DNA of 64,000 nt from a virus (Duplodnaviria; Caudoviricetes): IMG/VR virus record IMGVR_UViG_3300032312_001422, positions 160,001 to 224,000 of that record; one strand, written 5' to 3'. Shown one piece after another: positions 18,739 through 40,335 of this stretch (positions are counted from its first letter, which is position 1; each line of letters starts with the position of its first letter). The notes below the pieces were generated by a model. It did not search any database and had not been told where the DNA came from. It worked only from the letters and a program-made list of their open reading frames with translations. The position numbers were made by a program, and so were the translations under genes.

Positions 18739-19903
18739 GTATAACTTATCCAGTCATTACGAAAATATATTCCAACACCTACAAACTATTATAACAGATC
18801 CTAGGGTGGTTTACCTACACCCTTTTGGATCAACTCTACCAGAAAATCTAGAATTTCGAAGAAATGACATTGGTGCAGGACAGTTCCGTGGACCAATGTT
18901 TATCTTTTACGATCAAGAGCCCCTGGACCTTGAATACAACCGACCTGTGTTTGAAGCCATTACTGCTCTCGAACAAAAACCGTTTATTCTAGTATCCACT
19001 GAACGTGACAGTGATGAAGCCACTCGTATCTGTGAAGAGTTTCCATTTTTGCACATCAATTATTTCTTTCATATATTTGCTGCACACGATTGGTTCCGTG
19101 GACATCAGATGCTTCCAGGAATACAACTACCGCATGAACGTACATTAGAAAAAACATATATATCGTTTAATCGACTGACCAGTAATCGTCGTATCTATCG
19201 TAGTTTGCTAGTCAACGAGTTGTACAAAAACAATTTACTAGAACACGGCTATGTGAGTTACAGTCACCATTGTCCAGATGATGGAGCATTTGATGACAAC
19301 CTACGCCGAGGAGTTCCTGAATATGAGTTTGACTCTGCATATATCGAAGAAGCTATTGCTAACATAAAACAAATACCAGAGTTGCGTATAGACTTTGCTG
19401 GACAAGACATTCCCAATCAAAGTATGCTGCTGAGTCCTATGACAGAGCTAATGAAGAGCTTTGTATTTTTAGTAACAGAGACTTGCTTCTTTCAAACAAA
19501 AACACACTTGACAGAAAAGATATTTAAACCCATTGTGTTACGTATGCCGTTTGTACTTGCCGGCTGTGCTCATAACTTGGCATATTTGCGTAGCTATGGA
19601 TTTCGTACATTCGGTGATTACTGGGACGAAAGTTACGACACCATAGAAGATCCTGTACTACGCATCAAAGCTATCACACAGGTAATAAAAACCGTTAGCG
19701 AATTAAGTACAGAACAACAAATGACCATGTTGCTAGACATGCAACCTATATTGGAACATAACTATAATTTGTTCAATGATCCTGCGTTTATCAAACGTGA
19801 ATGGGATCATTTAATAAATTCTATCACAGCAATAGATCGTGCGTTTCAGCGTATACCCCCATACCGACTAGACGTTAGGACTGGTTTACCCGTCCCCATT
19901 TAA
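18737..19903 (+). CDS. GT10/GT-B-like putative glycosyltransferase (copy 1 of 5), inverted relative to the cluster
   Basis: FLVTETCFF...LTEKIFKPI...PFVLAG...GFRTFGDYWDESYD resembles the ENS...TEK donor motif of GT10 fucosyltransferases. Confidence 0.55.
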   Translation: MYNLSSHYENIFQHLQTIITDPRVVYLHPFGSTLPENLEFRRNDIGAGQFRGPMFIFYDQEPLDLEYNRPVFEAITALEQKPFILVSTERDSDEATRICEEFPFLHINYFFHIFAAHDWFRGHQMLPGIQLPHERTLEKTYISFNRLTSNRRIYRSLLVNELYKNNLLEHGYVSYSHHCPDDGAFDDNLRRGVPEYEFDSAYIEEAIANIKQIPELRIDFAGQDIPNQSMLLSPMTELMKSFVFLVTETCFFQTKTHLTEKIFKPIVLRMPFVLAGCAHNLAYLRSYGFRTFGDYWDESYDTIEDPVLRIKAITQVIKTVSELSTEQQMTMLLDMQPILEHNYNLFNDPAFIKREWDHLINSITAIDRAFQRIPPYRLDVRTGLPVPI

Positions 19904-20087
19904 TTTGATCCCATACACGCTCATGTATAAAGTATAGAACAGTATTTGTTACCAATTGAATAGTTGCTATACTGCCCGCAATAACAAAATTTCCAGATAT
20001 CAAATAACTGATCCCAAACGTAGCACTACTACCGGTTATGCGCCAGGTAATAGTTTTTATTAAACTCCGTTTGGGTTTATCAATCAC
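19875..20087 (-). CDS. DUF2061-family small membrane protein
   Basis: RSLIKTITWR...LYFIHERVW pattern, adjacent to the CysC-like gene. Confidence 0.8.
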   Translation of the reverse strand: MIDKPKRSLIKTITWRITGSSATFGISYLISGNFVIAGSIATIQLVTNTVLYFIHERVWDQIKWGRVNQS

Positions 20088-20941
20088 TTTAATCCCAGCT
20101 CTTTACGAATCTTTGTGGCACTGATGTCAGTGATTGTTTCATCAAACGTTTCTTCCCCGCTGGTGTATCCTACTCCGCGGCCCCAACCAATGTGTACAAT
20201 GTTAGGAACTACCTGTATTTCATATTGCCCTTGATAGATAGGATCTAAGTCACGTCTAATAAATGCCTTGACTTTTGCCACCTCAAAAGGATTTGATCCT
20301 TGCCAGCCCTGTACATCACGTATCTGAATAACCACTTGCCCTGTACGCTGTATTAGTCGATCAAACAAGGCACGGTGCCCGTCATGCCAAGGTTGCCAAC
20401 GTCCCAACATTTGTACAGTTTCCTTCTTCCAATCAAACGTAGGACGGCGGCGATTGTCAATTATGTGTTGACCAATAAACTCAGCCCATTTGTCTGCATC
20501 TTGTTCTGTAACACGGAAGTCATACACGTCAGGCTCAACAAAGGCCGCATTGGTGTCGGCATAACGACCTTCGCGGATAGTGTCTACCCAGATGGTCCAG
20601 TCAGCTTTGAAGTTGTTACGCATCTCCACCAAGGGTGCAACAAAGTCACAGATCACATAGTCGCCGCCAGCTTCTATGCTGAACTGAAACATGCGTAGGC
20701 TTTGGCGGATACGTCCTTCATTGCTAAAATCCCAGTCGTTGTACTTGCGGCGAATGTCGTCGGCATTAAACCAAGTTACCTTAGCATCAAACCCGGTTAC
20801 TGGAAGTTGTTCGGCAGAATACATACTCATTGTTCCGTGCTGTTCCAAATACTTTTTAAGAGCACCGGCCAAGGTTGTTTTACCCGCACCCGGCAGGCCC
20901 ATGATTAAAATACGTTGTGTCATTTTATTTTCCTTTACCAA
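20084..20941 (-). CDS. Adenylyl-sulfate kinase-like domain fused to a HIGH-superfamily nucleotidyltransferase domain
   Basis: N-terminal GLPGAGKTT, NADDIR, VICDFVAP, AFVEP. C-terminal GRWQPWHDGH and ISATKIR. Confidence 0.8.
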   Translation of the reverse strand: MVKENKMTQRILIMGLPGAGKTTLAGALKKYLEQHGTMSMYSAEQLPVTGFDAKVTWFNADDIRRKYNDWDFSNEGRIRQSLRMFQFSIEAGGDYVICDFVAPLVEMRNNFKADWTIWVDTIREGRYADTNAAFVEPDVYDFRVTEQDADKWAEFIGQHIIDNRRRPTFDWKKETVQMLGRWQPWHDGHRALFDRLIQRTGQVVIQIRDVQGWQGSNPFEVAKVKAFIRRDLDPIYQGQYEIQVVPNIVHIGWGRGVGYTSGEETFDETITDISATKIRKELGLK

Positions 20942-21477
20942 ATATCTGATGGTACTTCGGTGTTTCTAAATCCTTGATACAAACTCATTCTGTAGTTAGT
21001 GACTGGATGTTGCATGCCGTGTGGTATGCGTGTAGGACCTATCAGCATATATCCTGTGTTTGCTCGATAGGGTACGGTGTGCCATGCACCTTCGTCATAG
21101 CAACAGGTTCCCATATTTTCTGCACCGTCGCTGAGATAAACTTGTATATTAACACAATGATTGGGGCTGACATCTCCATCGTGTATGGTATTGATATAGC
21201 CGTTGTCGTCGTACCATAGTTGTGGACCATTTTGATATAACGGTCCAACACGTGGCTCGGCTGTTCTAACATATTTTTTTAATTCTGCATGTATCTGTTG
21301 TGCAAGATATTCATTAACTGATAAACTCAACTGTTGACGTTTTACATCTGTGTTATCATCTGAAATTTGATCCCATGTGGATCTGTCTTGATCAAAACTA
21401 GATGTCAGTCTTTGATAAAGAGCTGGACTAAACACATCAGTAAGTTGATAAAAATTTTCTGTAATTTTTACGAGCAT
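20935..21477 (-). CDS. 2OG-Fe(II) oxygenase-like protein
   Basis: WYDDNGYINTIHDGD, IQVYL, distal PHG, RMSLY. Confidence 0.65.
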   Translation of the reverse strand: MLVKITENFYQLTDVFSPALYQRLTSSFDQDRSTWDQISDDNTDVKRQQLSLSVNEYLAQQIHAELKKYVRTAEPRVGPLYQNGPQLWYDDNGYINTIHDGDVSPNHCVNIQVYLSDGAENMGTCCYDEGAWHTVPYRANTGYMLIGPTRIPHGMQHPVTNYRMSLYQGFRNTEVPSDIW

Positions 21478-22949
21478 ACACGTACTCCGTACAGTTGCTC
21501 AAAGCGATCTGCATCCGCACGATCATTAACCATGGGCTCGCCGCGAATATTTAGACTGGTGTTTAACAACATGGGACAACCGGTCATTACATACCACTTT
21601 TCTAGGAGTTCTCTAATGCCTGAGCCATCAGCTGCAACCGTCTGTACTCGGCTAGTGCCGTCGTGATGCACAATAGCAGGAAAAGCGTCAGGCATGCGGC
21701 AATGTGCGACTGACTGCATATAAGGACTATCACTGAAGCCGCGGGGCATATCAAAAAATAACTCAGCTTGCTCAGCCAGGATAACTGGCGCAAATGGCCT
21801 AAACTTTTGTCTACGTTTGATTTCATTGACACGGTCTTTTATATCTGGTCCACGCGGGTCGGCGAGGAGACTTCGGTTCCCAAGGGCACGAGGTCCAAAT
21901 TCGGCTCGTCCACTAGCAACTCCAACGATTTTATCGCGGAGTAAACAATCCAGGACGGCATTGACGGGATAGTTGCCGCCAATTGTGTGACCAAGGTATG
22001 CGTTGTTGAAGTCAATTCTTTTGCCATAGGCGAGTGCAGCGGCACCAAGACTACTACCAGCATCGCCAGGATTAGGCATGATCCAAATTTTTTCAAAATA
22101 ATCACCAAGATTACGATTAGCTAAACAGTTTAGGGCAACCCCGCCCATGTAAACCAAATTTCTGCTCCAGCCAAAGTCTTTGGCTCGACGCATAACATTA
22201 TATATCAAATTTTCACAAAAAGCCTGGCTAGATGTGGCTATATCGTATTCTAGATGTTTGGCTAAAAATTCCTCATCTACACCCAGGTGCAAATTTTGTA
22301 CAAATTCAATATCCCACTCATTGGACATTAATGCATTTTTAATTTGTGCAGCAACTTTAGGTTCGCCATAGGCTGCCATGCCCATTAATATGTATTCTTC
22401 TTCATTGGGTTTTAATCCCACACGCTGAGTCATTGCTGAGTAAAACAGGCCTATACTGTGTGGATATCTCTGTCCCCATAGTCTATGATATTTTGCTCGA
22501 CCATTATCGTAGTGAGCACCCCATATACTAATTGTGTCCCATTCACCAATAGCATCAATAACAACCACTGTGGCTCGATCAAATGTGCTAGTCTGGAATC
22601 CTGCTGCGGCGTGACTTAAATGATGACTGTGTGTGCTAACAGGAGTGCCAGAAAAGAATCCGCCTAGTTGTTGTTTAAGTACCTGGCGTGTGGTTAACTT
22701 ATCCCACTCTAGACCTTGCCCACTATATAACTGACGTAACTGTTTCTTCCACGGGGTTTCGTAGTAGGCAATGTGATCAATATGACGCCACCCGTTACAG
22801 GACAAGTCAAGAAGCATTTCCTTGTGTAGGTTGGGGTCATTCTTAATCTTGCTGTAGCGTTCTGAGTGCCCGGCATATAAGATTTCACCGTTGTTGATTA
22901 CTGTTGCGGCGGCATCATGGAAGCCAGCCGATATTCCTAATATGTTCAT
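21468..22949 (-). CDS. NodU/CmcH/TobZ-family carbamoyltransferase
   Basis: GFHDAAA, HHLSHAA, VIDAIGE, GGVALNC, GRAEFGPRALGNRSLLADP, RPFAP, NTSLN. Confidence 0.95.
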   Translation of the reverse strand: MNILGISAGFHDAAATVINNGEILYAGHSERYSKIKNDPNLHKEMLLDLSCNGWRHIDHIAYYETPWKKQLRQLYSGQGLEWDKLTTRQVLKQQLGGFFSGTPVSTHSHHLSHAAAGFQTSTFDRATVVVIDAIGEWDTISIWGAHYDNGRAKYHRLWGQRYPHSIGLFYSAMTQRVGLKPNEEEYILMGMAAYGEPKVAAQIKNALMSNEWDIEFVQNLHLGVDEEFLAKHLEYDIATSSQAFCENLIYNVMRRAKDFGWSRNLVYMGGVALNCLANRNLGDYFEKIWIMPNPGDAGSSLGAAALAYGKRIDFNNAYLGHTIGGNYPVNAVLDCLLRDKIVGVASGRAEFGPRALGNRSLLADPRGPDIKDRVNEIKRRQKFRPFAPVILAEQAELFFDMPRGFSDSPYMQSVAHCRMPDAFPAIVHHDGTSRVQTVAADGSGIRELLEKWYVMTGCPMLLNTSLNIRGEPMVNDRADADRFEQLYGVRVCS

Positions 22950-23565
22950 TGATTTTTTCTGCTATTCTTTTGTGTCCCAACTCCAATGGATGTCCTAATG
23001 GTCCTCTTGGGCAATCTCCTTGCCACATATAAATTCCCTCAAACGGCCATCCTGGGTAATGGTTAGTATCGACCCCATCACATAGGTATTGTACACTATT
23101 CCATGCACCGTTGTAAAGCTGTTGATCAATTCCATTTAGGCTAACCATGATGTAAGGTTGATTGATGGATTTTAAATATCCCTGTAATGCCAATATCTGT
23201 GAAACCCATTTTTTATGAGCATGTAAATCATTGTAGTGATATTGGTAGTATGTTTCTAGCCAAGTTAGCCCAAACATCTGAGAGTGTAACTTTCCCACAT
23301 TTACATCCATTGTGCTACGTCGTCGGTCATTCCATATTTCCATTCGACTAGGCTCAGTCCACTGTACAATAACTAGATCAAATTTGTGTTGAACAGTTTC
23401 TTCTACAACCAATCTAAACGTACGATCATTGGATGCACCACCCATGCCTAAATTTTTTACTGAGCGATTGTTTAGTTTTCCAATCAAGTTAGGCCAAGCA
23501 GATTCTGCAGGATTTGGTAATTCTGCACCCTCTGTGAAACTACACCCAACTGCTAATATGTTCAT
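22915..23565 (-). CDS. SGNH-like protein (copy 4)
   Basis: AVGCSFTEG, GMGGASN, GHPLELGH. Confidence 0.65.
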   Translation of the reverse strand: MNILAVGCSFTEGAELPNPAESAWPNLIGKLNNRSVKNLGMGGASNDRTFRLVVEETVQHKFDLVIVQWTEPSRMEIWNDRRRSTMDVNVGKLHSQMFGLTWLETYYQYHYNDLHAHKKWVSQILALQGYLKSINQPYIMVSLNGIDQQLYNGAWNSVQYLCDGVDTNHYPGWPFEGIYMWQGDCPRGPLGHPLELGHKRIAEKINEHIRNIGWLP

Positions 23566-24184
23566 AAATTTTTTCTGCTATGATCGTGTGTCCTTGTTCC
23601 AGTGGATGTCCGCCAGGTCCGTGCGGTGTACCAAATGTCCATTCAGTTGATCCTGAATATGGCCAACCAATGTATGAGTTTATATCTATGCGTTGAACTA
23701 AGTGTTCATGTTGATTTTGTTTTTTTATAAAATCAATATTCCAACTCTCAGCATTACACGCACTAAACATCACGCAAGGAACGGCATTTGCACGACAAAA
23801 CGTTTGTGTTAAAACAATTTGTCTTATCCATTTGGCATAATAATATCCAGGCACATCGTATGCTGTCATGTACTTGATTAGATCACGTCGATGATCTGAG
23901 CAAGTTTGCATTCTGCGATAATCCCTACCTGCCCACAAATCAGTAATACTGATATCATCGGCAAACTCTTGTCTAGCTGGATCTGACCACCCAACAACAA
24001 TCAATGAAGCGCCATCAAATACAGCATCCATTGTACGCTTAACTATGCGGTAGTTTCCAGTTGCTGGTTTACCCCAATTGGTTACAGGTTGTTTTAATTT
24101 TTTACCTAGTAATGTGGGCCAGGCCGTGTCACGGTCAGTTAATTCTTCGCCGTAAGTAAAGCTATCTCCGATACAGTAAATCAT
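23540..24184 (-). CDS. SGNH-like protein (copy 5)
   Basis: CIGDSFTYG, GKPATGN, GHPLEQGH. Confidence 0.65.
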   Translation of the reverse strand: MIYCIGDSFTYGEELTDRDTAWPTLLGKKLKQPVTNWGKPATGNYRIVKRTMDAVFDGASLIVVGWSDPARQEFADDISITDLWAGRDYRRMQTCSDHRRDLIKYMTAYDVPGYYYAKWIRQIVLTQTFCRANAVPCVMFSACNAESWNIDFIKKQNQHEHLVQRIDINSYIGWPYSGSTEWTFGTPHGPGGHPLEQGHTIIAEKIYEHISSWV

Positions 24185-24282
24185 TTATAGATAAATGGAT
24201 CTCTTTTACGCAGTTCTTTTAACTTCTTGCGATAGCGTAACTCTAGCTTAATGCGATTGTAAATGTTTCGTAACCAGTTCAT
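24181..24282 (-). CDS. 33 aa basic small protein (not in ORF track)
   Basis: MNWLRNIYNRIKLELRYRKKLKELRKRDPFIYK*. Its TGA overlaps the ATG of the next gene. Confidence 0.7.
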   Translation of the reverse strand: MNWLRNIYNRIKLELRYRKKLKELRKRDPFIYK

Positions 24283-25030
24283 TGAATTTTCCTTGCATCA
24301 AAACGGATGCGTCTTTGTGTGCTTGTTCCAGTGGATGTGTAGTTCCTATAGGGTATTTATTCTCTACTGCCCACTGATAAAAACCTCTTGGTGTTTTGGT
24401 TTGGTTACTTCCTGTTCCGGCCGGGAACCAAAACCAACGGCTATGATCTATCTGTTTTAACAAACTTGCAATTACTGTGTCTGCCGTATTGATTGTATGG
24501 TTATTGAATATACTGTTGTCTGCACAGGTAAACAAGAATGGTATTTGTTTTAACGTCAAATAGTTTTGTAAGTACGTTATTTCTTTAAGACTGCTGTATA
24601 TTTCCCAGTACTCTGATCCGCCCACATGACGATAAAATGACTCAGCAAAGTCTGCCACACCTGTTTGTTGAGCACGTTTAATGGTCTGCTTTTGTGCTTC
24701 TAATATATCCGCATCTTCTGTAACAAACTCTTCTCGAATGCTATCCAAGTTGGTTTGAATAGTCCATGCATTAATGGCATACCAAGGCGATTTCTTTTGC
24801 CGGGTATCATATGCAAACCTAAATTCATATCTGCCAGGAAATGTCCATGACACTAGGACTCCGGTAACTCCGCCTTGTTCACAACGTTCTATAGTGGTAC
24901 GTGCAATAGCATCGTTGCCAAAGCCAGGCCAGGCCACACACTCGTTGGCACCTAGTAGTGCTGTAAATGTGTTGGCAGGACTTTGTAGTTCACTGCCGTA
25001 AACAAAACTATCTCCGGCTGCTATAATCAT
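24248..25030 (-). CDS. SGNH-like protein (copy 6)
   Basis: AAGDSFVYG, AWPGFGN, THPLEQAH. Confidence 0.65.
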   Translation of the reverse strand: MIIAAGDSFVYGSELQSPANTFTALLGANECVAWPGFGNDAIARTTIERCEQGGVTGVLVSWTFPGRYEFRFAYDTRQKKSPWYAINAWTIQTNLDSIREEFVTEDADILEAQKQTIKRAQQTGVADFAESFYRHVGGSEYWEIYSSLKEITYLQNYLTLKQIPFLFTCADNSIFNNHTINTADTVIASLLKQIDHSRWFWFPAGTGSNQTKTPRGFYQWAVENKYPIGTTHPLEQAHKDASVLMQGKFNELVTKHLQSH

Positions 25031-26093
25031 ATCCAGGCTTCATCATATCTATTTGCTGTTGTTTATAAGTGGCATCAGACCAGCAGTAATCAAATGTTGC
25101 TCGTACTCCATCTACTTCTATTTGGTATATGTCCAAATGACTACTAAGTATATCCCATATGTGTTGATAGTCAGCTGTTCCAAAACTCTTTGTTAACTCC
25201 ACTTGTCCAATGGGCAAGTATCCTAGACTCAATTGAGGGTCTGCAGGGTCACGGTTGTTGGCTATTAACCATTTACGAAACTCTATTTGTTCCTTGGTAT
25301 GCCATGGATTACTATCGCCTAGCAAAGTTACATCGTTGCCCCACTCTACGTCGAACTCACCCGAATAGTATTTTAATTCTGTAATAGATTCGCATACTGT
25401 TTCCGTAAGCTCTGGTGCATGTTCATCACGGAATACTTCAAACAATGTTTTGCCTATCTGTGTCCAATGCATATACACTCCGCCTAGCACACGATCATAT
25501 CCGTTGATGGCAAACCCTGTGCGATGTTCTCCTTTGAGATCATACCGCTGTGCCTGTAGGAATGTGGTAATCTGGCTTGGGCGTACCCAATAAGGTGCTG
25601 TTGATTCTTTGCGTTGACTTAGAATTAAGTTTTCCATCTCGTGACAGATATTGTTTAATTGTCGTATAGCATACTTTGTTTCGTAGTTGGCACGTCGATA
25701 ATAATCACTTAGTCCCCAGACAGTTCCTTGCAAGCGTTCAAAGTGATTGTGTAATTGATTCATTACTGCATGATTAACACCATTATCTGCGTAATCAAAT
25801 CCACGTACAGAGTCTGGCGTAAATGTTTCGGGTATAATATATTCGCAACTACTACTGTTGATTATATCAACTGCTTGATTAAGTTCGTCGCAAAGATATT
25901 CCAATGTGCGGGCTGTGCGAGGGAAGCCCATAAAACAAAAATTCTTTTCTAGCAAGCGACCACTTTGTAATTCTAGCTTTAATGCAGATATCCAATCCTT
26001 TGCCAATTGATTATCTGCAGCCGTGATTGTGTAATCAACTTGATTGTTGTAGTTTAAGGGATTACGTAGGATTACTTTAATTGATTGAGTCAT
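25008..26093 (-). CDS. Hypothetical protein embedded in the modification cluster
   Basis: 361 aa, overlaps both neighbours, NQLHNHFE and NICHEME His motifs. No family recognised. Confidence 0.8.
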   Translation of the reverse strand: MTQSIKVILRNPLNYNNQVDYTITAADNQLAKDWISALKLELQSGRLLEKNFCFMGFPRTARTLEYLCDELNQAVDIINSSSCEYIIPETFTPDSVRGFDYADNGVNHAVMNQLHNHFERLQGTVWGLSDYYRRANYETKYAIRQLNNICHEMENLILSQRKESTAPYWVRPSQITTFLQAQRYDLKGEHRTGFAINGYDRVLGGVYMHWTQIGKTLFEVFRDEHAPELTETVCESITELKYYSGEFDVEWGNDVTLLGDSNPWHTKEQIEFRKWLIANNRDPADPQLSLGYLPIGQVELTKSFGTADYQHIWDILSSHLDIYQIEVDGVRATFDYCWSDATYKQQQIDMMKPGYDYSSRR

Positions 26094-27387
26094 ACCATTC
26101 CAGTGCCGCAGGTCTCAAGGACATTATGTCTCTAAAAGTATACTGGTCTTTTCGAATTCTTTCAATCTCTAATGTTCTGGCCTTGCCTTTACGCAGGCCT
26201 GCTTGGTAAGTGTCAGGCCATTGTTCAGCAAAAGTGGGTCTTGTTTTGAGTTGAATCAGTATATCCCGTAACGGGCCGGTAAGAGGGCGTTCCCCAGGAG
26301 TGCCATTCACAATTTCGTCTATCCAAGGATGCAGTACATCTTTGGGTAGTGCCAACGGGCTCATAATGATGTCTGGGCTAAACGAGAACACCACTTTTGC
26401 TAAAACATCTACTCCGAGTTCTTGGGCAAGCGTTTGTATCGCTTGTACTTCAAAGAGTCCTGGTGTAGTAAGAGTGAAGTCCAAACGGATCTGGCGGCGG
26501 CTACGGTTGTATGCAAGTCCTTCGCGGATGTTCTCAAGCCACTGATCAAAATCAAGACCTGATCGAATATACTCTCCAATTCTGCCCGTGCCGTCGATGC
26601 TTGCACAGATTTGCCAGTCACGTAGCCCAGATAAAATATCCCTAAACAGATTAATACCTCTATAATTGATCCTACTAAGATTTGTGTTGTATCTAGCGTA
26701 AACATTTTTTCCATCTCCAAGTTCGATAATACGCTTCATGTAACGCCAGTGTTGCTCGTACATAAGCGGCTCTCCTCCCACCCAATACACCTCTTCCACT
26801 CGGTGCTCCTCAACAGCAGTGGCAAACTCTTGCTCTACCTGGGTGTCTTGAAACTTTTCTATTTGTATCTTGACTTCGGGACGCATCCAGTTGTTTTTAG
26901 GATTTGTCAAGTCGATCATTGCGTGTTGTCGTTGCTCACTCTCCCAAGCACTACTCAACATGTCACCGCACATGCGGCACTTAAAATTACAAAGGTTACT
27001 AAATCTGTAATCCCACGAAACTGGCTTCATTGTCGTGTAGCCTGTTGCATCAGTATGCTCTATGGCTTGTAAATACTTATGCCCAAACAGCTGGTTAAAA
27101 TAACTACGGTAAACGTCTGTGTTTAATAGTTTGTCGTTGCACACTTCGCACTCGGGTAGTGTTTCCCCAGCCATCATACGACGACGCACACTACGCATAT
27201 GATCGCTGTTCCAATGTTGATCTAATGTAACGGGAATATACTGGCCTGTGCCACTTTTGGTATCAATATACTGCTCAAAGTTTTGTGCTGGCTCGCGGCT
27301 GGCGCAACACATGCGTCTTTCTGTTTGTGGACTCAAATATGTGTGTGTCCAAGGTGCCATGCACAAGGTTGCTGGTTTAAATTGCAT
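26077..27387 (-). CDS. Radical SAM enzyme with N-terminal Twitch/SPASM-like domain
   Basis: CMAPW...MCC...CEVC, then CNFKCRMC and VGGEP. Confidence 0.9.
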   Translation of the reverse strand: MQFKPATLCMAPWTHTYLSPQTERRMCCASREPAQNFEQYIDTKSGTGQYIPVTLDQHWNSDHMRSVRRRMMAGETLPECEVCNDKLLNTDVYRSYFNQLFGHKYLQAIEHTDATGYTTMKPVSWDYRFSNLCNFKCRMCGDMLSSAWESEQRQHAMIDLTNPKNNWMRPEVKIQIEKFQDTQVEQEFATAVEEHRVEEVYWVGGEPLMYEQHWRYMKRIIELGDGKNVYARYNTNLSRINYRGINLFRDILSGLRDWQICASIDGTGRIGEYIRSGLDFDQWLENIREGLAYNRSRRQIRLDFTLTTPGLFEVQAIQTLAQELGVDVLAKVVFSFSPDIIMSPLALPKDVLHPWIDEIVNGTPGERPLTGPLRDILIQLKTRPTFAEQWPDTYQAGLRKGKARTLEIERIRKDQYTFRDIMSLRPAALEWYDSIN

Positions 27388-28447
27388 TTATATACTCAAT
27401 TGCTTGTTGTATTTTATCAACATTGGTTTTTGTAACATGATTGTAAAATGTATGATAGAAATGATTATGATTATAGTCAACTAATTCTTGTATTGCAGGC
27501 GAGTCTAACAAATCGTCTTGATCAAAGTTATCAATAAATTCAAATATTTTTTTATATCTAATACTGTCAACGTCTTTATCATAATCCAATTTAAATTCAG
27601 ATTCAAAAGATTCAAAGCCTAATAATTTTAATCTTTCTATACTGCGTTCTTGTGATACAAGCACAAAGCAACAACCAGTTACAATTGATTTCATTATTTT
27701 TTCTGTCAAATAGGCAACAGGTTGATCATGGCAAGAAACAAACATTGATTCACATGTCCACAATAACTTAGAATCTTTAAGTACACGATTATCGAGCGTC
27801 CACGTATGTCCGGGGGCTTTGATAGGATTTAAATGTATGTGATTTAATAATTCAATTTCTTTGTCTGTGATGTTTAATCCAAATTCAGATATCAACTGTT
27901 GGCAATACAATGTAAATGTTGTTTGATTATATTCAGCCGACGGAGTATTGCAAAATGTATATTGTAATTTATTGTCAAATTTATGTAGTAACTTTGCAGT
28001 CGCCAATGCTTTATGCATAGCGTTTCTATTAGACAGAGAACCATGTGTAAATTTTCTTGTGTGAAGTTTTGTATACTCTGGTTTTTGTAAAAAAGGAATA
28101 ATTGTGTGTAGATGTTCTATATAAAATATTTTTGTACGCTTAAACTCAGGGCCTTGATAAAATTGTGAAGTTAATAAAACTATCTGCTTGTCTGCAAATG
28201 CCGGATCGTTTTCCAATCTCTGTAGCATGTCAGTATTGAAACTTTCCCCAAATGCACACAGAATATAGATATCATAGTCTATCGGTGGATACTTAGGATT
28301 CCACCCAAGGCGGTCTATTAGATAGATACGTTTATCAGTTGATATTTGTTTTAAAAAAACAAGCAATTCTCCAAACTCTTTATCCAGTGGATAAGGGTAA
28401 TTATTTAAATTTCCGTTGTATGTAGTATGGTTGGCCTTAACCCACAT
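27377..28447 (-). CDS. GT10-like putative glycosyltransferase (copy 2, divergent, AT-rich)
   Basis: WTCES...YLTEKIMKSI...LKLLGFESF...DYD. Confidence 0.5.
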   Translation of the reverse strand: MWVKANHTTYNGNLNNYPYPLDKEFGELLVFLKQISTDKRIYLIDRLGWNPKYPPIDYDIYILCAFGESFNTDMLQRLENDPAFADKQIVLLTSQFYQGPEFKRTKIFYIEHLHTIIPFLQKPEYTKLHTRKFTHGSLSNRNAMHKALATAKLLHKFDNKLQYTFCNTPSAEYNQTTFTLYCQQLISEFGLNITDKEIELLNHIHLNPIKAPGHTWTLDNRVLKDSKLLWTCESMFVSCHDQPVAYLTEKIMKSIVTGCCFVLVSQERSIERLKLLGFESFESEFKLDYDKDVDSIRYKKIFEFIDNFDQDDLLDSPAIQELVDYNHNHFYHTFYNHVTKTNVDKIQQAIEYINAI

Positions 28448-29654
28448 ATCCCATTGCCCGTGCTATTTCTTCATGTGTATCCATAAAGTTTTGTTTGCGA
28501 TGTTCGTCTGTGCGTTGCATTTTAAACAAGAACTCCTTACCGTCACTGCCGGTGCCATTTTTAATAAATTTAATTACACTATCAATTTCTTGTTGATATT
28601 TGTTATTTTTCCAAAATGTTGTTTTTAGTTTGTTTAGTACCAATTCCTGTGCTGCCGGAGTCATCATTTGTATGCTCATGTGATCCGGGCTATGCATCAT
28701 ATTAAAATAGATGTCACCAAATCTTTTTGTATCTGCCCAATCCAGTAGTTCATCTAAGTAGTAAACGTTTTGTATGTTTATGGTAAAGCATAACTGTGTG
28801 GTAATATTAGGAGTGTCAACAGCCTGCGTAAAATGCACATCATCAATAATTTTATTTGCTAATTCCCAATTGGCTCCGTAACGTTCATATTCAAAACGTG
28901 AGCCTACGTTGTCAATACTAAAGGCAATGTCAACTCGGCCAAACTCTTTCCACATTAAAATTTGTGGGGTACCAGGTTGTTGTGTAGCATTGGTGTTGTA
29001 GTGTATATCAATATTTTTACTGTATCCTTGATCTACTGCGTACTGTAATAAATCAAAGTGTTCTTGTATCATCCAGGGCTCGCCACCAGTGAATTCAAAG
29101 TACCGAATGTTGGGCAACAACTCACGCATGTTATCCCAGAATGTTTCAGTCTTGCGTGGCCATGCACCTTGCCGTAACCAAGTGTAGGCAATGTGTTCTT
29201 TTTTATTAATGCCTGGCATATAAGCAAGTTCTTCTTCGGCCCACTTGCTCGAACTCCACGATCCGCATATACGACATTTAAGATTACAAATGTTTCCTAG
29301 CTTTAGATCAACAAACCATAGCTGATCTGGATCATCGTTATCCCAATCCACTTGCTGATATAACTCTTTCAAACGAACTTGACTGTGTATACGTTTGCTG
29401 TCACGTCCCGCCGACTCTTCTTCCCAACAGCGACTACAGGTTGCAGGCTTTTCACCGCGTCTAAATTGTCTGCGTAAGTTTTGCATGTATTCACTGTGAT
29501 ATGCCACTTCCAAATTGGTTTCATTTAAGTCATACTTGTTGCCCAACTCATCTGTAATTTCTTCGTGTGCCATACAACAAGGTCGTGTAGTTCCCATCGG
29601 GCTGGCTTCGATACTAATCCAGGGCAACATACAAATTGTCTTAGGTAGGTTCAT
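28437..29654 (-). CDS. Radical SAM enzyme with N-terminal Twitch/SPASM-like domain
   Basis: CMLPW...PCC...CSRC, CNLKCRIC, TGGEP, HYNTN. Confidence 0.9.
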   Translation of the reverse strand: MNLPKTICMLPWISIEASPMGTTRPCCMAHEEITDELGNKYDLNETNLEVAYHSEYMQNLRRQFRRGEKPATCSRCWEEESAGRDSKRIHSQVRLKELYQQVDWDNDDPDQLWFVDLKLGNICNLKCRICGSWSSSKWAEEELAYMPGINKKEHIAYTWLRQGAWPRKTETFWDNMRELLPNIRYFEFTGGEPWMIQEHFDLLQYAVDQGYSKNIDIHYNTNATQQPGTPQILMWKEFGRVDIAFSIDNVGSRFEYERYGANWELANKIIDDVHFTQAVDTPNITTQLCFTINIQNVYYLDELLDWADTKRFGDIYFNMMHSPDHMSIQMMTPAAQELVLNKLKTTFWKNNKYQQEIDSVIKFIKNGTGSDGKEFLFKMQRTDEHRKQNFMDTHEEIARAMGYVG

Positions 29655-30984
29655 AATCTTTTAAATTGGCTAGTTCCGGGAATGTTTCCCAAAAATCTTC
29701 ATTGCGTACTGTATCTAGTTTAGCACACTCCTCAACAAAGCGTGGCCACAGGTGACTTTGATCTGCACCTTTTAATAAATTCAATGTGCTACGGAATCCA
29801 TTGGTTGCACGTTTAAGATTGTCTTGTGACTGCAACCACTCGATATGTTGTTCGTATGCAGGCACAATAACATCACGTTTAAACTGTTCTGGAAAGATAT
29901 CTATGCGATACCATTCCGGGCTTTGGCAAATATTTACATTAAAGTCTTTGGCTTTAATCAGCCCCAACTCAGTCCACTCTCGATGGAAATCCAAAACGTG
30001 CAACACATTCATTGAACTGATAGTGGCACTGATATAAAAGTCCACATGCGGCACTTCTGCCTGCATGCGTTGACGGTTATCCACGGCTTGTGCCCAATCT
30101 GTTCCTTTACGCATCAGCTCGGCTCTGACTCCCGATGCATCTAGGCTGGCGCCAACACTAACATTCTTAAAGTGTTTCCAATAATCAAACACATGTTTAT
30201 CTTTGTAAGCCAACTCGCTGAAATTGGTGTTGTACTGAATACGCACATCTGTTTTACCGGCTTCAATCAACTTCTCCAGCAAGTAATAATGTTCTTTCAT
30301 AATTAGGGGTTCGCCACCAGCAAAGTACACCTGTTCAAGATGAGGTATGTGTGGCTCCATCTGTGCTAGCATACCGTCTTCGTCTCCGGTGGTGTACTCT
30401 ACACGAGCCATATCACGGCCAAGCACATCAGGAACACGATTATACAACTTGACATGATCGTTAAACCAGTTACTGCTGAAAATAGGCCCACAGCTGCGAC
30501 AACGGAAGTTACAAAGGTTGCTAAAACGAACGTCCCAATAACGTATTTTGAATTCAGGATTTGTGCCATCATCTTGTGTCCTTTCGATTTCATCTATATG
30601 ATGTCCATAGTTACGATTGGCATCGTTACGCATACTAAAAAATCCGTTGCGTTCTTGTTCGTAACATTTATTACACTCTTTACTCTTGATTTCTGTAACC
30701 ATGTTCTTACGCAGGTTACGATATGGTTCTTGATTCCACACTTGTTCCATGGTGTTTTTACGCAGGTCTCCAACTGGATGCCAATAGTCTGCTACACAAC
30801 AAGGATAAGCACGGCCATCCGGAAAAGCATGTAAGTGCATCCAAGGCAACATACAAAATGTTTCGCTTTTCATTAATAAATCTTGTTGTGTTTCACTGAG
30901 TTTGTCAGGTTCAATAAAATAAGGTTTACGTGCCATGTAGTCGTAACCCTTGTTGTAAAAGTCTTTTGTTGTATTTTCACTCAT
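29641..30984 (-). CDS. Radical SAM enzyme with N-terminal Twitch/SPASM-like domain
   Basis: CMLPW...PCC...CNKC, CNFRCRSC, AGGEP, QYNTN. Confidence 0.9.
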   Translation of the reverse strand: MSENTTKDFYNKGYDYMARKPYFIEPDKLSETQQDLLMKSETFCMLPWMHLHAFPDGRAYPCCVADYWHPVGDLRKNTMEQVWNQEPYRNLRKNMVTEIKSKECNKCYEQERNGFFSMRNDANRNYGHHIDEIERTQDDGTNPEFKIRYWDVRFSNLCNFRCRSCGPIFSSNWFNDHVKLYNRVPDVLGRDMARVEYTTGDEDGMLAQMEPHIPHLEQVYFAGGEPLIMKEHYYLLEKLIEAGKTDVRIQYNTNFSELAYKDKHVFDYWKHFKNVSVGASLDASGVRAELMRKGTDWAQAVDNRQRMQAEVPHVDFYISATISSMNVLHVLDFHREWTELGLIKAKDFNVNICQSPEWYRIDIFPEQFKRDVIVPAYEQHIEWLQSQDNLKRATNGFRSTLNLLKGADQSHLWPRFVEECAKLDTVRNEDFWETFPELANLKDYEPT

Positions 30985-31735
30985 ATAGTATATCTTTGTT
31001 TGTTAGTTGTGGTATTAGTATTTCTCGTAACCATCCTTCTGTTGCTTCTGGAAACTTAGGATGGAAATGATCATCTTCTAAATATTTGCGTTTTCTAGCC
31101 CAGTCGCCGTAGTAGTCGTCGTCATGTAACGGCAACCACGGTTCTTTGTCTAAGGACAAATTTAATTTAGCAAGTTCGGCACCGAAGTCAGCAAAATGCG
31201 GCGATGGAAAACTGTGTTTTTTATAATTCAAAAATGATGTATAACAATATGTGTATTGGTTAATCTTTAGATAGTTAGATAAATTTTGCATTGCCAACCA
31301 ACTGTGCAATGTTAAACTGTGGATAGACTGATATTTTGAATAGTCCACCAATGTTTTTATCAACGGTGTTGGGTTTTTTGCATTCCACCAGGCCCCGCCT
31401 ACTACAAGTTCATTGTAATCATCGTATTGGTAATTGAATGAATACTCTGTTGAAAAATTTGAATTTTTAGCATCAGTGATCCAGTCAATTCTGTTGATAC
31501 CGGACCACATTGCAATTACCAAGGTATCTTCTGTTGGTAATTTGTTCTTTTCTAGGTAAAGCATGATGCTTTTGCTAATGTGATCGTTACCTACTCCGGA
31601 TATGGCAAGATTATGTATCTGCATGCCGGTCCAGTCAGCTAACAAATTTGCCCAGCTCGAATGTCCGGGTATACGTCCTGTGTGATGCGTAAAACTACAC
31701 CCCGAAACTACTAAATGTTTAAATTTAGATTTCAT
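30977..31735 (-). CDS. SGNH-like protein (copy 7)
   Basis: VSGCSFT, AISGVGN, DDHFHP. Confidence 0.6.
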   Translation of the reverse strand: MKSKFKHLVVSGCSFTHHTGRIPGHSSWANLLADWTGMQIHNLAISGVGNDHISKSIMLYLEKNKLPTEDTLVIAMWSGINRIDWITDAKNSNFSTEYSFNYQYDDYNELVVGGAWWNAKNPTPLIKTLVDYSKYQSIHSLTLHSWLAMQNLSNYLKINQYTYCYTSFLNYKKHSFPSPHFADFGAELAKLNLSLDKEPWLPLHDDDYYGDWARKRKYLEDDHFHPKFPEATEGWLREILIPQLTNKDILYE

Positions 31736-33074
31736 TGTACCACTCTGCCAAATTGGAGAACGTCTCTACAAAGTTCTTACTGCGACGTTGATCGTATTGT
31801 GTAAAAAATTGTTTGAAGTCCTGTTGTAGTATACTTTGTTCTGCAGCACCCACATGCGGAGTTATAACCACATCAAGATAATCAATCAGGCGTTTTAATT
31901 GGTCAATTTCAAACGCATGGAACACACCAAAGTCTTTGTGCGTTTTATAAAATTCACTTAATTTTGTTCTGTATTGTGTTCGAATTGTGTCTGGTAGTAC
32001 CAACGGACTTTGAAAACTTGGAAAGCGTAATATGTTTAGTGAAAAATTAATTGAATCTTTACCGTGCTTGAGTTTCCAGTTATATACCATCTCAAGGAAG
32101 CTGTCTAACGTATCCAAGCACAATGCATTAATGGTACACATGACATGCAGGCCGCGGAACTTGCCCGAGTCTAGTAGACGTTCAACATTATTAGTCCAGT
32201 CATCAAACACAAGGCCATCTCGAATGTATTCAGCTTGCAATCCTATTGATTCGTTGCTGGTATATAAATCAATTTCTACTCCATCAATTGCAACAAGCAA
32301 TCGATCAATATCCACGTCAGTGCCTAGGTTACTGTTGATGGCAAGACGTGTAGAGCTTTTACCTTTATTGGTTTTAAACCAATCAATTAACTTCCAGGTT
32401 TCCGCACTCATCAACGGCTCACCGCCAGTGATGCGTAATTCTTTTAGTGTCCTGTGTAGATCTGATTCCCACCATGCATGAAAAGCTTCAACGTACGGAT
32501 TTGTTTCTCCAAACTTGTAAAGCTGACTAGCATCATGGGCATGAGTAAAGTGATTGCGGCCATCGCTGACAAGACCGTTATAAGCACCATTGGTCTTGAT
32601 GTCTCGGACCCAAGTACTACTGAACGCTGGGTTACAGTAGCTACAGGCAAATTGGCAGGTTCTGTCAAACGCAATTTCCAGGGTTTGGAGATCAATATCT
32701 TCGCTGGCGGGTGTTCTAAAGGCATGTGATAAATCCTTGTCATCGTATATAACTGTTTTGTAAACACGATCACTGATGTTGTCTCGGCCAATGTCTTCTA
32801 TTTTCCAGCAGTATTCACAACCAGTGGGACGTTCACCTTTTTGCATTTGTTCGCGTTCCATTTTTTTCTTTTGCGTATTATGCAACGCTTTTGGATTACG
32901 TGCAACATCCTCTACACTTACTTGGTGTGGCAATGGATGATGACAACTGGTAGTTTGCCCCGATCCTAGCCAAATAGTAGCATTGTACCATTTGGCTCCG
33001 CAGAAGCTTTCTGACTTGATGTCAATTACTCTGCGTTTATACTCTAAATCAGTTTCGTTATTAATTCTGGGCAT
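31725..33074 (-). CDS. Radical SAM enzyme with N-terminal Twitch-like domain (Cys/His subtype)
   Basis: CGAKW...SCHHP...CEYC, CQFACSYC, TGGEP. Confidence 0.9.
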   Translation of the reverse strand: MPRINNETDLEYKRRVIDIKSESFCGAKWYNATIWLGSGQTTSCHHPLPHQVSVEDVARNPKALHNTQKKKMEREQMQKGERPTGCEYCWKIEDIGRDNISDRVYKTVIYDDKDLSHAFRTPASEDIDLQTLEIAFDRTCQFACSYCNPAFSSTWVRDIKTNGAYNGLVSDGRNHFTHAHDASQLYKFGETNPYVEAFHAWWESDLHRTLKELRITGGEPLMSAETWKLIDWFKTNKGKSSTRLAINSNLGTDVDIDRLLVAIDGVEIDLYTSNESIGLQAEYIRDGLVFDDWTNNVERLLDSGKFRGLHVMCTINALCLDTLDSFLEMVYNWKLKHGKDSINFSLNILRFPSFQSPLVLPDTIRTQYRTKLSEFYKTHKDFGVFHAFEIDQLKRLIDYLDVVITPHVGAAEQSILQQDFKQFFTQYDQRRSKNFVETFSNLAEWYNEI

Positions 33075-34444
33075 GGTATTTACATTCGTTCCAAAATTCT
33101 GTCATTTCTGGAAAAGTTTTTAAAAAGTCAGTTTTGCGTCGTTTGTCGTGTTCGTTAAAAAAAACGATAAAAGTCTGCACGTTGCAGTTTAACATATTCT
33201 GGGTCTAGATTGCGACCTGCTTTCATCCAATCTATATCTCTACGCATACGCTGTACTTCGTAGTCTTTGAATCCATGGAATGGGTCATCTGCGGTTTCCA
33301 AATTGAGTTCCATCCAATCTGCCACACGTTCTAGCACACCAATGTAGACTTCGGGTAATATTTGTAAACTTTGCCAGGTAGGTGTACGCAACAGCGGAGT
33401 ATCAAACCAAACACGCTGGTAGGTTTTACTATGCACTCGACGTAGGTCGAGTATCCACTCTAGTTGTCGTTGTAAGCCCAACACACTTAGATTGTTCATG
33501 GTAATAATAAATGTCAAACTGTTACGATACGGAATGTCTGTTAAGAAACGACTTACATTATCAGCCATGCGAGAAAAATTTAAACCATGTCTAATGTACT
33601 CTGCATGTCTGGGTTTACCCGAATCTAAACTCACATACTGCATAAAGTGTTCAATCTGGGTTGAACATAATTGCTTGACATAGCCCAAGTACTTGTGAAA
33701 CAATCGGTCTTCTACACTGAAGTTGCTGGTCACATCCAAGTGTAGTTCTGGATTGGGTAGTGCCAACACATAATCAAATACTTTGTAGGTATTCTTATCC
33801 ATTAGGGGCTCACCACCGGTCATGCGGAAATGTTTCAAATGAGGATACAGCTCAGGCCACCATTCCCAGAACGCATCCACGTAAGGATTGTCGTAACTGG
33901 CTGGGATAGGCCTGCGGCGACCAGTGAAGTGCTTGGGATCGTTATGCGGTGTGCTGGTAGGGTATGCACCGTAGTAGTCAGTTTCTTGCATCCAGGTGCT
34001 AGAGAACTGCGGACTGCAATAGCTACACTTGAGATTACATACATGATTGAAATTTACTTCAACATAACTGGGTATCCAATCTTCTGTACCTGTGCTGGAC
34101 TTGATTGCGTTATAGTCGTTGGCGGCCCAGGGTTCTCCTGAGCGGTAATGACGGTCACTGAGATTGCCCATGTCCTCTTGTGTCCAGCAATAACCGCACT
34201 CCTGTGGGCGTTCATTTTTAAGCATGATCACACGTTGATCTTTTTTGTGTGCTGTGTTGTGTAGTGCACCAGGATTGTCTTTTAATGCTGTAGGGTCAAT
34301 TTCATGCAGGGGCGGATGATAACAACTGTTGGTCATACCTGTAGCCAAATGCAAGCTGACTTGTTTCCATTTGGCTAGGCACAGCCCAGGACCCAATAGT
34401 TCCTTCATCTTTTCTGCAGAGGACATAAAATTGCTTTTTGACAT
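33061..34444 (-). CDS. Radical SAM enzyme with N-terminal Twitch-like domain (Cys/His subtype), interrupted by a +1 frameshift at 33155-33164
   Basis: CLAKW...SCYHP...CGYC, CNLKCSYC, TGGEP. Frame 0 stops at RFF* (33155). The +1 frame continues NEHDKRRKTDFLKTFPEMTEFWNECKYHAQN*, matching paralogue C-termini. Confidence 0.85.
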
Positions 34445-34447
34445 TAA

Positions 34448-35404
34448 TTAATCCTCAACTAGAGTAATTTTTTTAGAATAATTGCGATGTATTAACAAGT
34501 TATAGTTGTGATCTAGTATGCTTTGCATTGTGTGGTACATAGTGTTGAGCTCGTTTTTAGATTTGGTTGCCAACGTATCTGTCAACTTGATAATGTGGTG
34601 AAAACGAGTAACTGGATCGTATCCATCGTAATCTTCATCCCAGAAATCGTGGAATGTACGAAATCCCAGCTGACGTAAATAAATTAAATGATTTTTTGGG
34701 CCCATAATTATAAATGGCTTTTTCATCAACATGGGCCTAAATGTTTTTTCTGTGGGGCAAAAAGTATTGCCAGAGGTGTAACTTTCTGCTACCACGTCGA
34801 TCAGTATGTCTGGGTAAAATTCCAACAACTGATCTGTAAATCCCGAAGTATCTTGTTGTCCTGGAGTATATCCATCTTGCGTTTCTAGCATCAATGGCAA
34901 ACTATCAGCAATCGTTGCGAACGTTTTAATTTGTTCTGGCGCATTGGTAAACAGTTCTGTTAATTCAAATAGTTTGCGTGAATCTTCGTTGCGGTAATCG
35001 CCACGTAAATTCACGTACGATTCTGCGGGATACTGTGCCAACAAATGCCCAGCAATGCCAAGGCGGTGCCAAATTGGTCTTCCGTAATATGCTAAAAATA
35101 TCTTATTACCGTTCCATACATGATATTTGCTGTCTACTGGTTTTTTAACCTGTGCCCACTGTAGCAATGATTGGACTCTAATAAAATACTTGTCATGTTG
35201 TTCAATACAATTTCCGCTGTGTATTTCAACATATTTAAAATTGAATTTGTCTAATAGATCATACAAACCCGTTGCTGAACAGCTGGCACCTTCGGTTCTT
35301 GTGTCTATGCTTATTGTGCCACCTTGATTTTTAACTAAGAAATCAACTAGCTCAACTTGGTTCCAAATAAACGTGTCAGCAGTTATTACAGTAAATTTAT
35401 TCAA
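34448..35404 (-). CDS. GT10-like putative glycosyltransferase (copy 3)
   Basis: DVVAES...PTEKTFRPM...PFIIMG...GFRTFHDFWDEDYD. Confidence 0.55.
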   Translation of the reverse strand: MNKFTVITADTFIWNQVELVDFLVKNQGGTISIDTRTEGASCSATGLYDLLDKFNFKYVEIHSGNCIEQHDKYFIRVQSLLQWAQVKKPVDSKYHVWNGNKIFLAYYGRPIWHRLGIAGHLLAQYPAESYVNLRGDYRNEDSRKLFELTELFTNAPEQIKTFATIADSLPLMLETQDGYTPGQQDTSGFTDQLLEFYPDILIDVVAESYTSGNTFCPTEKTFRPMLMKKPFIIMGPKNHLIYLRQLGFRTFHDFWDEDYDGYDPVTRFHHIIKLTDTLATKSKNELNTMYHTMQSILDHNYNLLIHRNYSKKITLVED

Positions 35405-35921
35405 TCAAAAATCCAGAAATCTGTAATGTAAATTTATTTTGTAATCCAGCATTGGCACTAAGATGTTCTACAGAACTGTCCCATTGCAATCCTTCACCGG
35501 CACGCCAGTGTGTACTGACTTCATTGTCGTACTGTATAAAATGTCCCAGTTTCCAATCTTCCAAATAGATATTGGATCGAACTTTGATTTCTTTTCTGTC
35601 AGGATAATTTTTATTAATTTGAAAAAATGTATCTCTATGTAACGGAATCATGCAACCAGGTTCTTGTAAAATACTACTGACCATAATGACTTCCATGTTC
35701 AGCTGGCGGCCAAATTCTTCGTAGTCTACTTGTGTACGATCCCACCAAAGCTGATGTATTTTGGTATTGTCATAATTGAATGTGTTTGGGTAGCCGCCGT
35801 ACTTTTGATAGATATCATCAAGTTCTTTTTTCTGATGAGTCATGCAACTACCTTCGTGCTGGTTGTAGTCAGCTGCCAGTATAGTGGAAAAATCGTAATC
35901 TAAATTTATTTTATTAATCAT
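35397..35921 (-). CDS. 2OG-Fe(II) oxygenase / Asp-Asn beta-hydroxylase-like cupin
   Basis: PGCMIPLHRD (HxD), WRAGEG, EHLSANAG, TLQISG. Confidence 0.7.
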   Translation of the reverse strand: MINKINLDYDFSTILAADYNQHEGSCMTHQKKELDDIYQKYGGYPNTFNYDNTKIHQLWWDRTQVDYEEFGRQLNMEVIMVSSILQEPGCMIPLHRDTFFQINKNYPDRKEIKVRSNIYLEDWKLGHFIQYDNEVSTHWRAGEGLQWDSSVEHLSANAGLQNKFTLQISGFLIE

Positions 35922-35922
35922 A

Positions 35923-39628: not shown

Positions 39629-40335
39629 ATATAGTTATTTTTTATCAAATGATCGTGCAACTGGTCTGCATATTGTTGGTGTGCAATTGGCATTGGATGT
39701 AACGTATCATCAAATGCATTGAGTTTTTTAGCAACACCATGCAAACATACATCAGTAAAAAAGTTTTTATCATCAATCATATTATATAAACTGTCACATT
39801 CTTTTATGCGTGATAAAGGCCGGTACGGTATAAAAACATAAGGAATATTTGTTGCTTTTAATGTGTTTTGTAAAGATATTATTTTTACAATAGTAGAAAA
39901 AATATGGTCTTTAAGGCCAGTTACTTTATAGTACTCATGTACCACGCGACCTAGGCTATCATCTTTTTTGCGATTTAAATGACCTCCCCCAAACACCCAA
40001 TTTTTTTGTACGTAGTCTTGATCATTGATTGGAAATATTTTTTTACTGGGCCAGTCATTTTGCTGACTTTCATAGTATGATGTAGTTTTAATGTCGCTAA
40101 ATTGGTGAATATTTCTAACTCTGAAGTCAAATCTTTCTGCATAAGACCACATAATCAATACAAGGTTGTATGGTCGCTGACTGATTTCAGCCACAGTAGC
40201 TTCATGTATATATGTGTTGCCAGCACACGCCATTGATAAATTTACAATGTTACAATTTGGTATTTTTTCCTGTAACAGGTAAGGCCAGGACCCTTCTCCG
40301 CGGGAGACTGAACTTCCATTAATTAGTATATTCAT
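39625..40335 (-). CDS. SGNH-like protein (copy 9)
   Basis: INGSSVSRG, SMACAGN, DTLHPMPIAH. Confidence 0.6.
   Translation of the reverse strand: MNILINGSSVSRGEGSWPYLLQEKIPNCNIVNLSMACAGNTYIHEATVAEISQRPYNLVLIMWSYAERFDFRVRNIHQFSDIKTTSYYESQQNDWPSKKIFPINDQDYVQKNWVFGGGHLNRKKDDSLGRVVHEYYKVTGLKDHIFSTIVKIISLQNTLKATNIPYVFIPYRPLSRIKECDSLYNMIDDKNFFTDVCLHGVAKKLNAFDDTLHPMPIAHQQYADQLHDHLIKNNYI

Follow-up and report, generated by a model that had tools for sequence, protein, structure and literature searches.

A Short Phage Fusion of an APS-Kinase-Like Domain and a Minimal HIGH-Type Nucleotidyltransferase as a Proposed Compact PAPS Synthase

Introduction

To our knowledge, only two types of ATP sulfurylase are recognized, Sat and CysDN. 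The sulfate-binding motif of Sat is QxRN, and the Gly, Arg, His, and Ala residues of its GRDHAG sequence contact the ribose and the sulfate of APS; in Allochromatium vinosum (A. vinosum), sat occupies the slot before aprMBA (PMC3779200). SAR11 keeps AprBA, CysC, and CysQ but no sat, and cysC and aprA were reported from the same five of seven strains (Smith 2016, PMC5069961). Viral cysC genes have been interpreted as kinase-only genes that assist sulfate assimilation and are listed as not validated in the accessible part of one source (PMC12713726), and neither this part nor the accessible part of Kieft et al. (10.1101/2021.01.05.425418) mentions a fused HIGH domain for these genes. In the literature covered (most subscription papers excepted), no description was found of the domain family analyzed here, of its fusion to a kinase, or of a minimal ATP sulfurylase.

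The Fusion Gene and Its Neighborhood

The window analyzed here is a stretch of 64,000 nucleotides (positions 160,001 to 224,000 of IMG/VR record IMGVR_UViG_3300032312_001422, Caudoviricetes). The virus record that holds it has a length of 288.8 kb, is estimated to be 80% complete, and has the gene content of a jumbo phage. The features of the window on which the analysis is centered are:

20084..20923, minus strand: fusion gene (279 aa), a short-lid APS-kinase domain followed by a mini-HIGH nucleotidyltransferase; proposed compact PAPS synthase
20444..20923, minus strand: APS-kinase-like domain, aa 1-160 (Pfam APS_kinase, conserved residues)
20087..20437, minus strand: mini-HIGH domain, aa 163-279, proposed non-canonical ATP sulfurylase (motifs, gene contexts)
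19875..20087, minus strand: DUF2061 small membrane protein (PF09834, E = 4.5e-22)
21468..22949, minus strand: NodU/CmcH-type carbamoyltransferase, in a common transcription unit with the fusion gene

The preliminary description had placed an open reading frame at 20084-20941. The frame is real and lies on the minus strand, and its coding sequence likely starts at ATG 20923, because an AAGGA Shine-Dalgarno sequence lies directly 5' of this codon and because the lengths of almost all close homologs fall at 278-281 aa; the start at TTG 20941 was dropped. The fusion of an APS-kinase-like domain to a HIGH-type domain was confirmed (Pfam APS_kinase at aa 1-160, NadM-like at aa 163-279), and so was the adjoining DUF2061 gene, which overlaps the stop codon of the fusion gene by 4 nt. 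The AlphaFold model of the fusion protein has a mean pLDDT of 91, and PHROG 10255 ("kinase") spans both domains (E = 7.5e-43).

The carbamoyltransferase gene is located two genes upstream of the fusion gene. Between the two lies a gene for a 180-aa protein (20935-21477) with an HxD...H pattern that resembles 2OG-Fe(II) oxygenases; a family search with this protein returned no match. Other genes of the window, mostly assigned by eye, encode an NAD-dependent epimerase, a DegT-like aminotransferase, the carbamoyltransferase, SGNH-like proteins, and radical SAM proteins, and adjoin virion genes. A dense run of genes for radical SAM, SGNH-like, and glycosyltransferase-like proteins extends beside virion genes from 22915 to 41231, and IscA/IscU-like genes are found elsewhere in the phage genome, apart from the radical SAM array.

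The Kinase Domain

Residues 1-160 match Pfam APS_kinase (PF01583) with 30.4 bits against a cut-off of 21.1 (E = 4.8e-7). The top five matches of the kinase model in a VIA fold search are APS kinases (Z = 17.1-14.8; the best with an rmsd of 1.9 Å over 129 residues), followed by gluconate kinase (13.8), and nicotinamide riboside kinase reaches 9.7 compared with 17.1 for APS kinase. Residues K15 (P-loop), D55, R58, F66, R71, Q74, and P97 show no or almost no variation in the family and align with the DGD Asp and the Arg, Phe, Arg, Asn, and Pro of canonical CysC, the Asn position being occupied by Gln74. We take D55 to be the catalytic Asp of DGD and the positions of R58, F66, R71, Q74, and P97 to be those that bind APS in CysC structures. 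The lid is shortened by about 20 aa relative to CysC and reads GR[YF]xDTN where CysC has RDPKGLY...FTG, and the score against the TIGR00455 equivalog is 22.7 bits where 138.7 are required, the full CysC lid being absent. The FTG lid residue that stacks on adenine in CysC is missing from the short-lid kinase, which counts against reading the fusion as a PAPS synthase.

Gene context suggests that APS is still the substrate of the short-lid type. Three proteins (P0178, P0179, and P0232) fuse it to domains with sulfotransferase motifs, and in the Microvirga nod cluster described below the short-lid kinase stands between nodH and a cysD-cysN pair whose CysN has lost its kinase domain and ends in DUF2061. 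Kinase-only versions occur alongside sulfotransferases in phage RSL1, where the kinase clusters with a Sulfotransfer_2 gene, in Rhodoferax, and in Rhizobium. Taken together with fold and residues, APS kinase activity of the N-terminal domain is predicted with high confidence. In three further proteins (P0173, P0250, and P0251) the short-lid kinase is fused to SGNH-like domains, a type that is abundant in the window. The Ralstonia phage RSL1 region (L091:8001-16378) combines the kinase-only homolog with glycosyltransferases, a sulfotransferase, a protein with the helical domain of 5-hmdU DNA kinases, and thymidylate synthase, which hints at a sulfated hypermodified DNA.

The Mini-HIGH Domain

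The 117-aa C-terminal domain contains GRWQPWHDGH (174-183), R202, NP, GRGVGY, and ISATKIR (267-273). Ten residues (G174, R175, Q177, H180, G182, H183, G248, R249, G252, and R273) are invariant in 57 diverse members of the family, and the HxxH motif of the Sat class is thereby present as an invariant H180-D-G-H183. The G-R-x-x-G loop is invariant as well; of 319 sequences, 175 have D and 133 have G at x. This GR[D/G]VG sequence occupies the place of a helix region that is deleted relative to NMNATs and is similar to the GRDHAG of Sat; the correspondence is drawn from motif and position, because the profile aligns with canonical Sat solely at the C-terminal motif (hhalign, not significant, probability 40% over 17 columns) and a MAFFT alignment with Sat mis-paired the GRD region. 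The QxRN (RNP) loop of Sat is absent and GRWQ stands in its place, which counts against a sulfurylase reading, and the mini-HIGH domain therefore falls outside the Sat family. A PF01747 search returned no match to the fusion protein, and the 117 aa of the domain compare with about 350-400 aa for the three-domain Sat.

The nearest family is NadM (E = 3e-12 to PDB 1f9a). Residues 163-279 match NadM-type NMNATs weakly (E = 2e-5) and share their GRFQPFHxGH motif and HIGH fold, with a score of 26 bits against a curated cut-off of 181. Compared with the Methanocaldococcus jannaschii (M. jannaschii) NMNAT, 8 profile positions cover 33 residues, and a deletion of about 25-28 aa takes out the helix with the conserved Trp that is seen in two NadM sequences. 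In NMNATs this helix binds nicotinamide. The fusion also differs from NadR, as its kinase is APS-kinase-like and the order of the domains is reversed. A fold search with the HIGH domain ranked PPAT and NMNAT (Z = 10.4-10.5) above Thermus Sat (8.7); this too counts against a sulfurylase, but the search separates NMNAT, PPAT, and Sat poorly and does not settle the function. A second, divergent HIGH domain (GRFQPFHRGH) is found at the N-terminus of a 465-aa phage protein (G000:C1:124608-126005) and falls outside the mini-HIGH family, on a long branch of the tree.

Distribution of the Family

Clustering at 90% identity gives at least 7741 groups of homologs of the fusion, and the top 120 are 86-94% identical to it. 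Full-length fusions occur in cultured Sanovirus, in Salvo-like phages, and in DLP6, with Xylella phage Sano and Stenotrophomonas phage DLP6 as cultured carriers, and also in alphaproteobacteria. Matches were also found in Bacteroidota and Caulobacter MAGs, which may represent binned phage contigs; 0 of 250 other genomes from the phylum of genome G002 contained a mini-HIGH domain. The 56-kb siphovirus Sano encodes a sulfotransferase-like gp33, the NADAR protein gp34, and the fusion gp35 in a row (L088:5969-7738) and offers a tractable cultured system; the match of gp33 (PF17784, E = 4e-4) is below the cut-off. The mini-HIGH domain of the phage is 49-54% identical to the proteins from the sat slot and from SAR11-type genomes described below. 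In a small tree its clade joins the SAR11-type proteins (support 92/89); the tree does not give the family a root, owing to its long NMNAT branches.

Gene Contexts in Cellular Genomes

In cellular genomes, the mini-HIGH domain is found in APS-forming or APS-consuming slots of sulfur operons. Four small-genome alphaproteobacteria (G586, G605, G597, and G572) carry a stand-alone 126-aa mini-HIGH gene, with no kinase, directly before aprM-aprB-aprA; one of the four loci has an insertion upstream of the mini-HIGH gene, and xsc and suyAB-like genes lie nearby. A HIT-like protein encoded beside the suyAB-like genes (L294:2142-2540, L297:1744-2142) could be another APS-consuming enzyme. The operon chelatase-cysG-cysI-cysH-DUF2061-kinase-mini-HIGH, with the pair split at its end, is conserved in three genomes (G192, G306, and G307). 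No Sat and no CysD were found in G306 and G307; G192 contains a canonical Sat in a separate polysaccharide island, which counts against the sulfurylase reading. The three loci (L282, L290, and L289 for G192, G306, and G307) come from small alphaproteobacteria of low GC content, and their operon for assimilatory sulfate reduction contains no cysDN. G156, assembled almost wholly as one 2.06-Mb contig, encodes the fusion with a sulfotransferase-like gene after it; searches for Sat and CysD found neither in this genome.

Ten haloarchaeal plasmids carry a mini-HIGH domain attached to CysC. Here an intact mini-HIGH domain is fused to a full-lid CysC, a sulfotransferase gene lies just upstream in 5/5 plasmids inspected, and Sat was not found on the two plasmids tested. 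The cassette of sulfotransferase, cysC-mini-HIGH, and YqcI/YcgG is conserved (L173-L176, L273), which suggests a sulfated product and a role for YqcI/YcgG. The protein P0263 combines mini-HIGH and canonical CysC in the reverse order.

The nod cluster of Microvirga has the order nodH, kinase with a decayed HIGH domain (HESH, GLDLG, SPTAVQ), cysD, and cysN without a kinase domain, and the kinase domain is intact while the HIGH motifs are decayed. Judged from these sequences, the kinase would fill in for the missing domain of NodQ, and the HIGH domain would decay where CysDN is present. On the Microvirga lotononidis plasmid (L177:8229-13767), the nod sulfation set includes a cysN-DUF2061 fusion instead of NodQ.

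DUF2061 recurs with sulfate-activation genes: next to the fusion gene of the window, fused to CysN in Microvirga (L177:12178-13767), and, in G192, G306, and G307, after cysH and before the kinase gene (L282:9854-10126); it neighbors 17 of the 163 phage loci of the fusion family and is possibly a membrane anchor or a sulfate-handling partner. In G582 the mini-HIGH gene has a canonical-type cysC on one side and a pyruvate-kinase-like gene on the other, and the canonical sat of G192 is followed by a gene of similar appearance, so that a pyruvate-kinase-like gene recurs beside mini-HIGH or canonical Sat (L304:6191-8075, L303:5530-7259, L291:355-2857).

In marine metagenomes, a stand-alone mini-HIGH gene lies with a 135-aa short-lid kinase on low-GC contigs of SAR11-type gene content. 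One genome that shares 76% DNA identity with such a contig led to a set of 201 genomes, which, judged by sequence, would belong to SAR11. Of the 201 genomes, 162 contain mini-HIGH, 167 contain aprA, and 8 contain a canonical Sat. Both mini-HIGH and aprA occur in 152 genomes, mini-HIGH alone in 10, aprA alone in 15, and neither in 24 (odds ratio 24, p = 2e-13, among genomes that are kin and not phylogenetically independent). Two observations count against a sulfurylase: seven genomes contain both mini-HIGH and canonical Sat, and in most genomes the kinase/mini-HIGH pair is located far from aprBA, in a C1/organosulfur region.

Sulfotransferases Near the Phage Loci

The most common neighbor of the phage loci is the Sulfotransfer_3 family (52 of 163 loci in a redundant set). 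After dereplication, 5 of 16 phage fusion loci have a sulfotransferase compared with 0 of 26 TagD-like controls (p = 0.005) and 0 of 53 thymidylate synthase controls (p = 0.0004), in what is a small sample. The preliminary description had recognized no sulfotransferase in the window, and re-inspection recognized none either; the genome-wide search that it had proposed was run and produced one weak candidate outside the window. In the phage's own genome, estimated to be 80% complete, searches with PF13469, PF03567, PF00685, and home-built HMMs gave no match. The candidate, a 216-aa protein encoded about 40 kb upstream (G000:C1:139907-140557; L182:9907-10557), contains the Sulfotransfer_2-like motifs IPKNAST, KDPVDRWVS, and HTTPQ and is the only candidate PAPS consumer found in the genome. 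Its Atlas score is 0.95, with PF03567 in 19% of the members, and searches returned no Pfam match and no significant hhalign match. These motifs make it a weak candidate for a sulfotransferase.

Proposed Function and Alternative Explanations

The idea of a miniature PAPS synthase, already raised in the preliminary description, gains support from the gene contexts: the sat slot of aprMBA, the cysG-cysI-cysH operon, the CysC fusion near sulfotransferases, and the decay beside cysDN. Judged from sequence and context, the fusion is likely a PAPS synthase of compact size whose ATP sulfurylase part is small and non-orthologous, and ATP sulfurylase activity of the mini-HIGH domain is predicted with the same good confidence. 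The 117-aa domain would use a NadM-like scaffold to convert ATP and sulfate to APS and PPi. HxGH and SAT..R would grip the phosphates of ATP and PPi, the GR[D/G]VG loop would grip ribose and sulfate as the GRD loop of Sat does, the invariant R175 and the near-invariant R202 may stand in for the QxRN arginine, and loss of the NMN-binding helix would leave space for a small anion only. The N-terminal domain would phosphorylate the 3'-OH of APS, and the formation of PAPS would pull the unfavorable APS-forming step. In cells, the mini-HIGH domain would act alone or split from the kinase, and beside aprMBA the reaction is probably reversed (APS + PPi to ATP + sulfate).

In the phage, PAPS may feed a phage or host sulfotransferase whose acceptor would be a glycan or protein of the virion or of a surface. 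Among these acceptors a glycan is put forward, with low confidence, as the likeliest because the glycan-type genes of the window adjoin virion genes; boosting host sulfate assimilation is another possible use of PAPS.

The alternative that survives best, although unlikely, is a true APS kinase whose HIGH domain, instead of synthesizing APS from ATP and sulfate, acts on it by some other route, be it binding or regulation, hydrolysis, or an exchange with phosphate. The missing QxRN, the occasional coexistence of mini-HIGH with canonical Sat, and the kinase-only versions that serve sulfotransferases agree with it, but the invariance of HxGH, the terminal arginine, and GRxxG in the 57 diverse members is what ATP/PPi chemistry predicts, and the cysGIH operon and G156 need an APS maker where none other was found. 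Activation of another small anion or of a phosphoramidate for glycan decoration is improbable. In the Campylobacter MeOPN route, the CysC-annotated kinase Cj1415 phosphorylates cytidine diphosphoramidate, and a weak match to PRK05541, the shortened lid, and the glycan-type neighbors in the window and in O-antigen clusters point in this direction; it leaves the aprMBA, cysGIH, nodH, and sulfotransferase contexts and the canonical CysC fusion unexplained. Least probable of all is a NadR-like enzyme of NAD salvage or anti-NADase defense (kinase plus NMN adenylyltransferase, possibly forming 3'-NADP), for which the proximity to NadM, the NADAR gene adjoining the fusion in Sanovirus, and the presence of NadM and NadR in phages (PMC9503650) can be cited, as some 25 residues including the conserved-Trp helix are deleted, the kinase fold is that of APS kinases, and no NadV was recognized by eye among the 45 most common neighbor clusters. 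The plain NMN adenylyltransferase that the preliminary description had named as its refutation is thus disfavored, by the deleted helix and because NAD-salvage genes are not among the recurring neighbors. The NAD-salvage reading of the Sanovirus NADAR neighbor was set aside, the sulfotransferase-like gp33 lying one gene further.

Read as a whole, the proposed compact PAPS synthase and its cellular relatives make it reasonably likely, with somewhat less assurance than for the fusion itself, that the mini-HIGH family constitutes a minimal ATP sulfurylase class, the third besides Sat and CysDN and independent of both. It would stand in for the absent Sat in the sulfite oxidation of SAR11 (with ATP as a possible yield), run assimilation in some marine alphaproteobacteria, and give thousands of aquatic phages a PAPS synthase for an undescribed sulfation chemistry. 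If true, a third type of about 120 residues that is annotated as "cytidyltransferase" or missed would shift genome-based calls on sulfur activation and oxidation, and mini-HIGH would be a testable answer to how SAR11 keeps AprBA, CysC, and CysQ without sat. Many viral "cysC" genes would then be complete PAPS synthases tied to sulfotransferases, implying phage sulfation chemistry, and a PAPS synthase of 279 aa could help PAPS regeneration.

Comparison with Known Systems

Like the fusion, the known bifunctional PAPS synthases (human PAPSS1/2, PDB 1x6v; Aquifex Sat-APS kinase, PDB 2gks) combine an APS kinase with a HIGH-superfamily domain, and the predicted product is the same. The domain order of the fusion is that of PAPSS. 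The fusion differs in its length (279 aa compared with about 530-630), in a HIGH domain of 117 aa that lacks the PUA-like domain and QxRN and is nearer to NadM, and in the shortened kinase lid. With Sat-type enzymes (PF01747; A. vinosum sat-aprMBA, PMC3779200) the mini-HIGH domain has in common HxxH and a C-terminal IS[GA]TxIR, its GR[D/G]VG loop resembles GRD by motif and position, and homologs sit in the sat operon slot, whereas the QxRN and GxxKxxD loops and any match to PF01747 are lacking and the length is about one third. NadM and archaeal NMNATs (PDB 1f9a, 2qjo) share GRFQPFHxGH, NPF, and SxTxIR and give the best sequence matches and some of the best fold matches, but the NMN-binding helix is deleted in mini-HIGH, GR[D/G]VG replaces SNNP, and the contexts are sulfur genes and not NAD genes. 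The viral cysC auxiliary metabolic genes, in the accessible part of Kieft et al. (10.1101/2021.01.05.425418), and PHROG 10255 "kinase" are APS-kinase-like genes of aquatic phages, and many homologs of the fusion are annotated as such. On these sequence comparisons, the fusion probably works like a PAPS synthase while belonging to none of the Sat, PAPSS, and NMNAT families.
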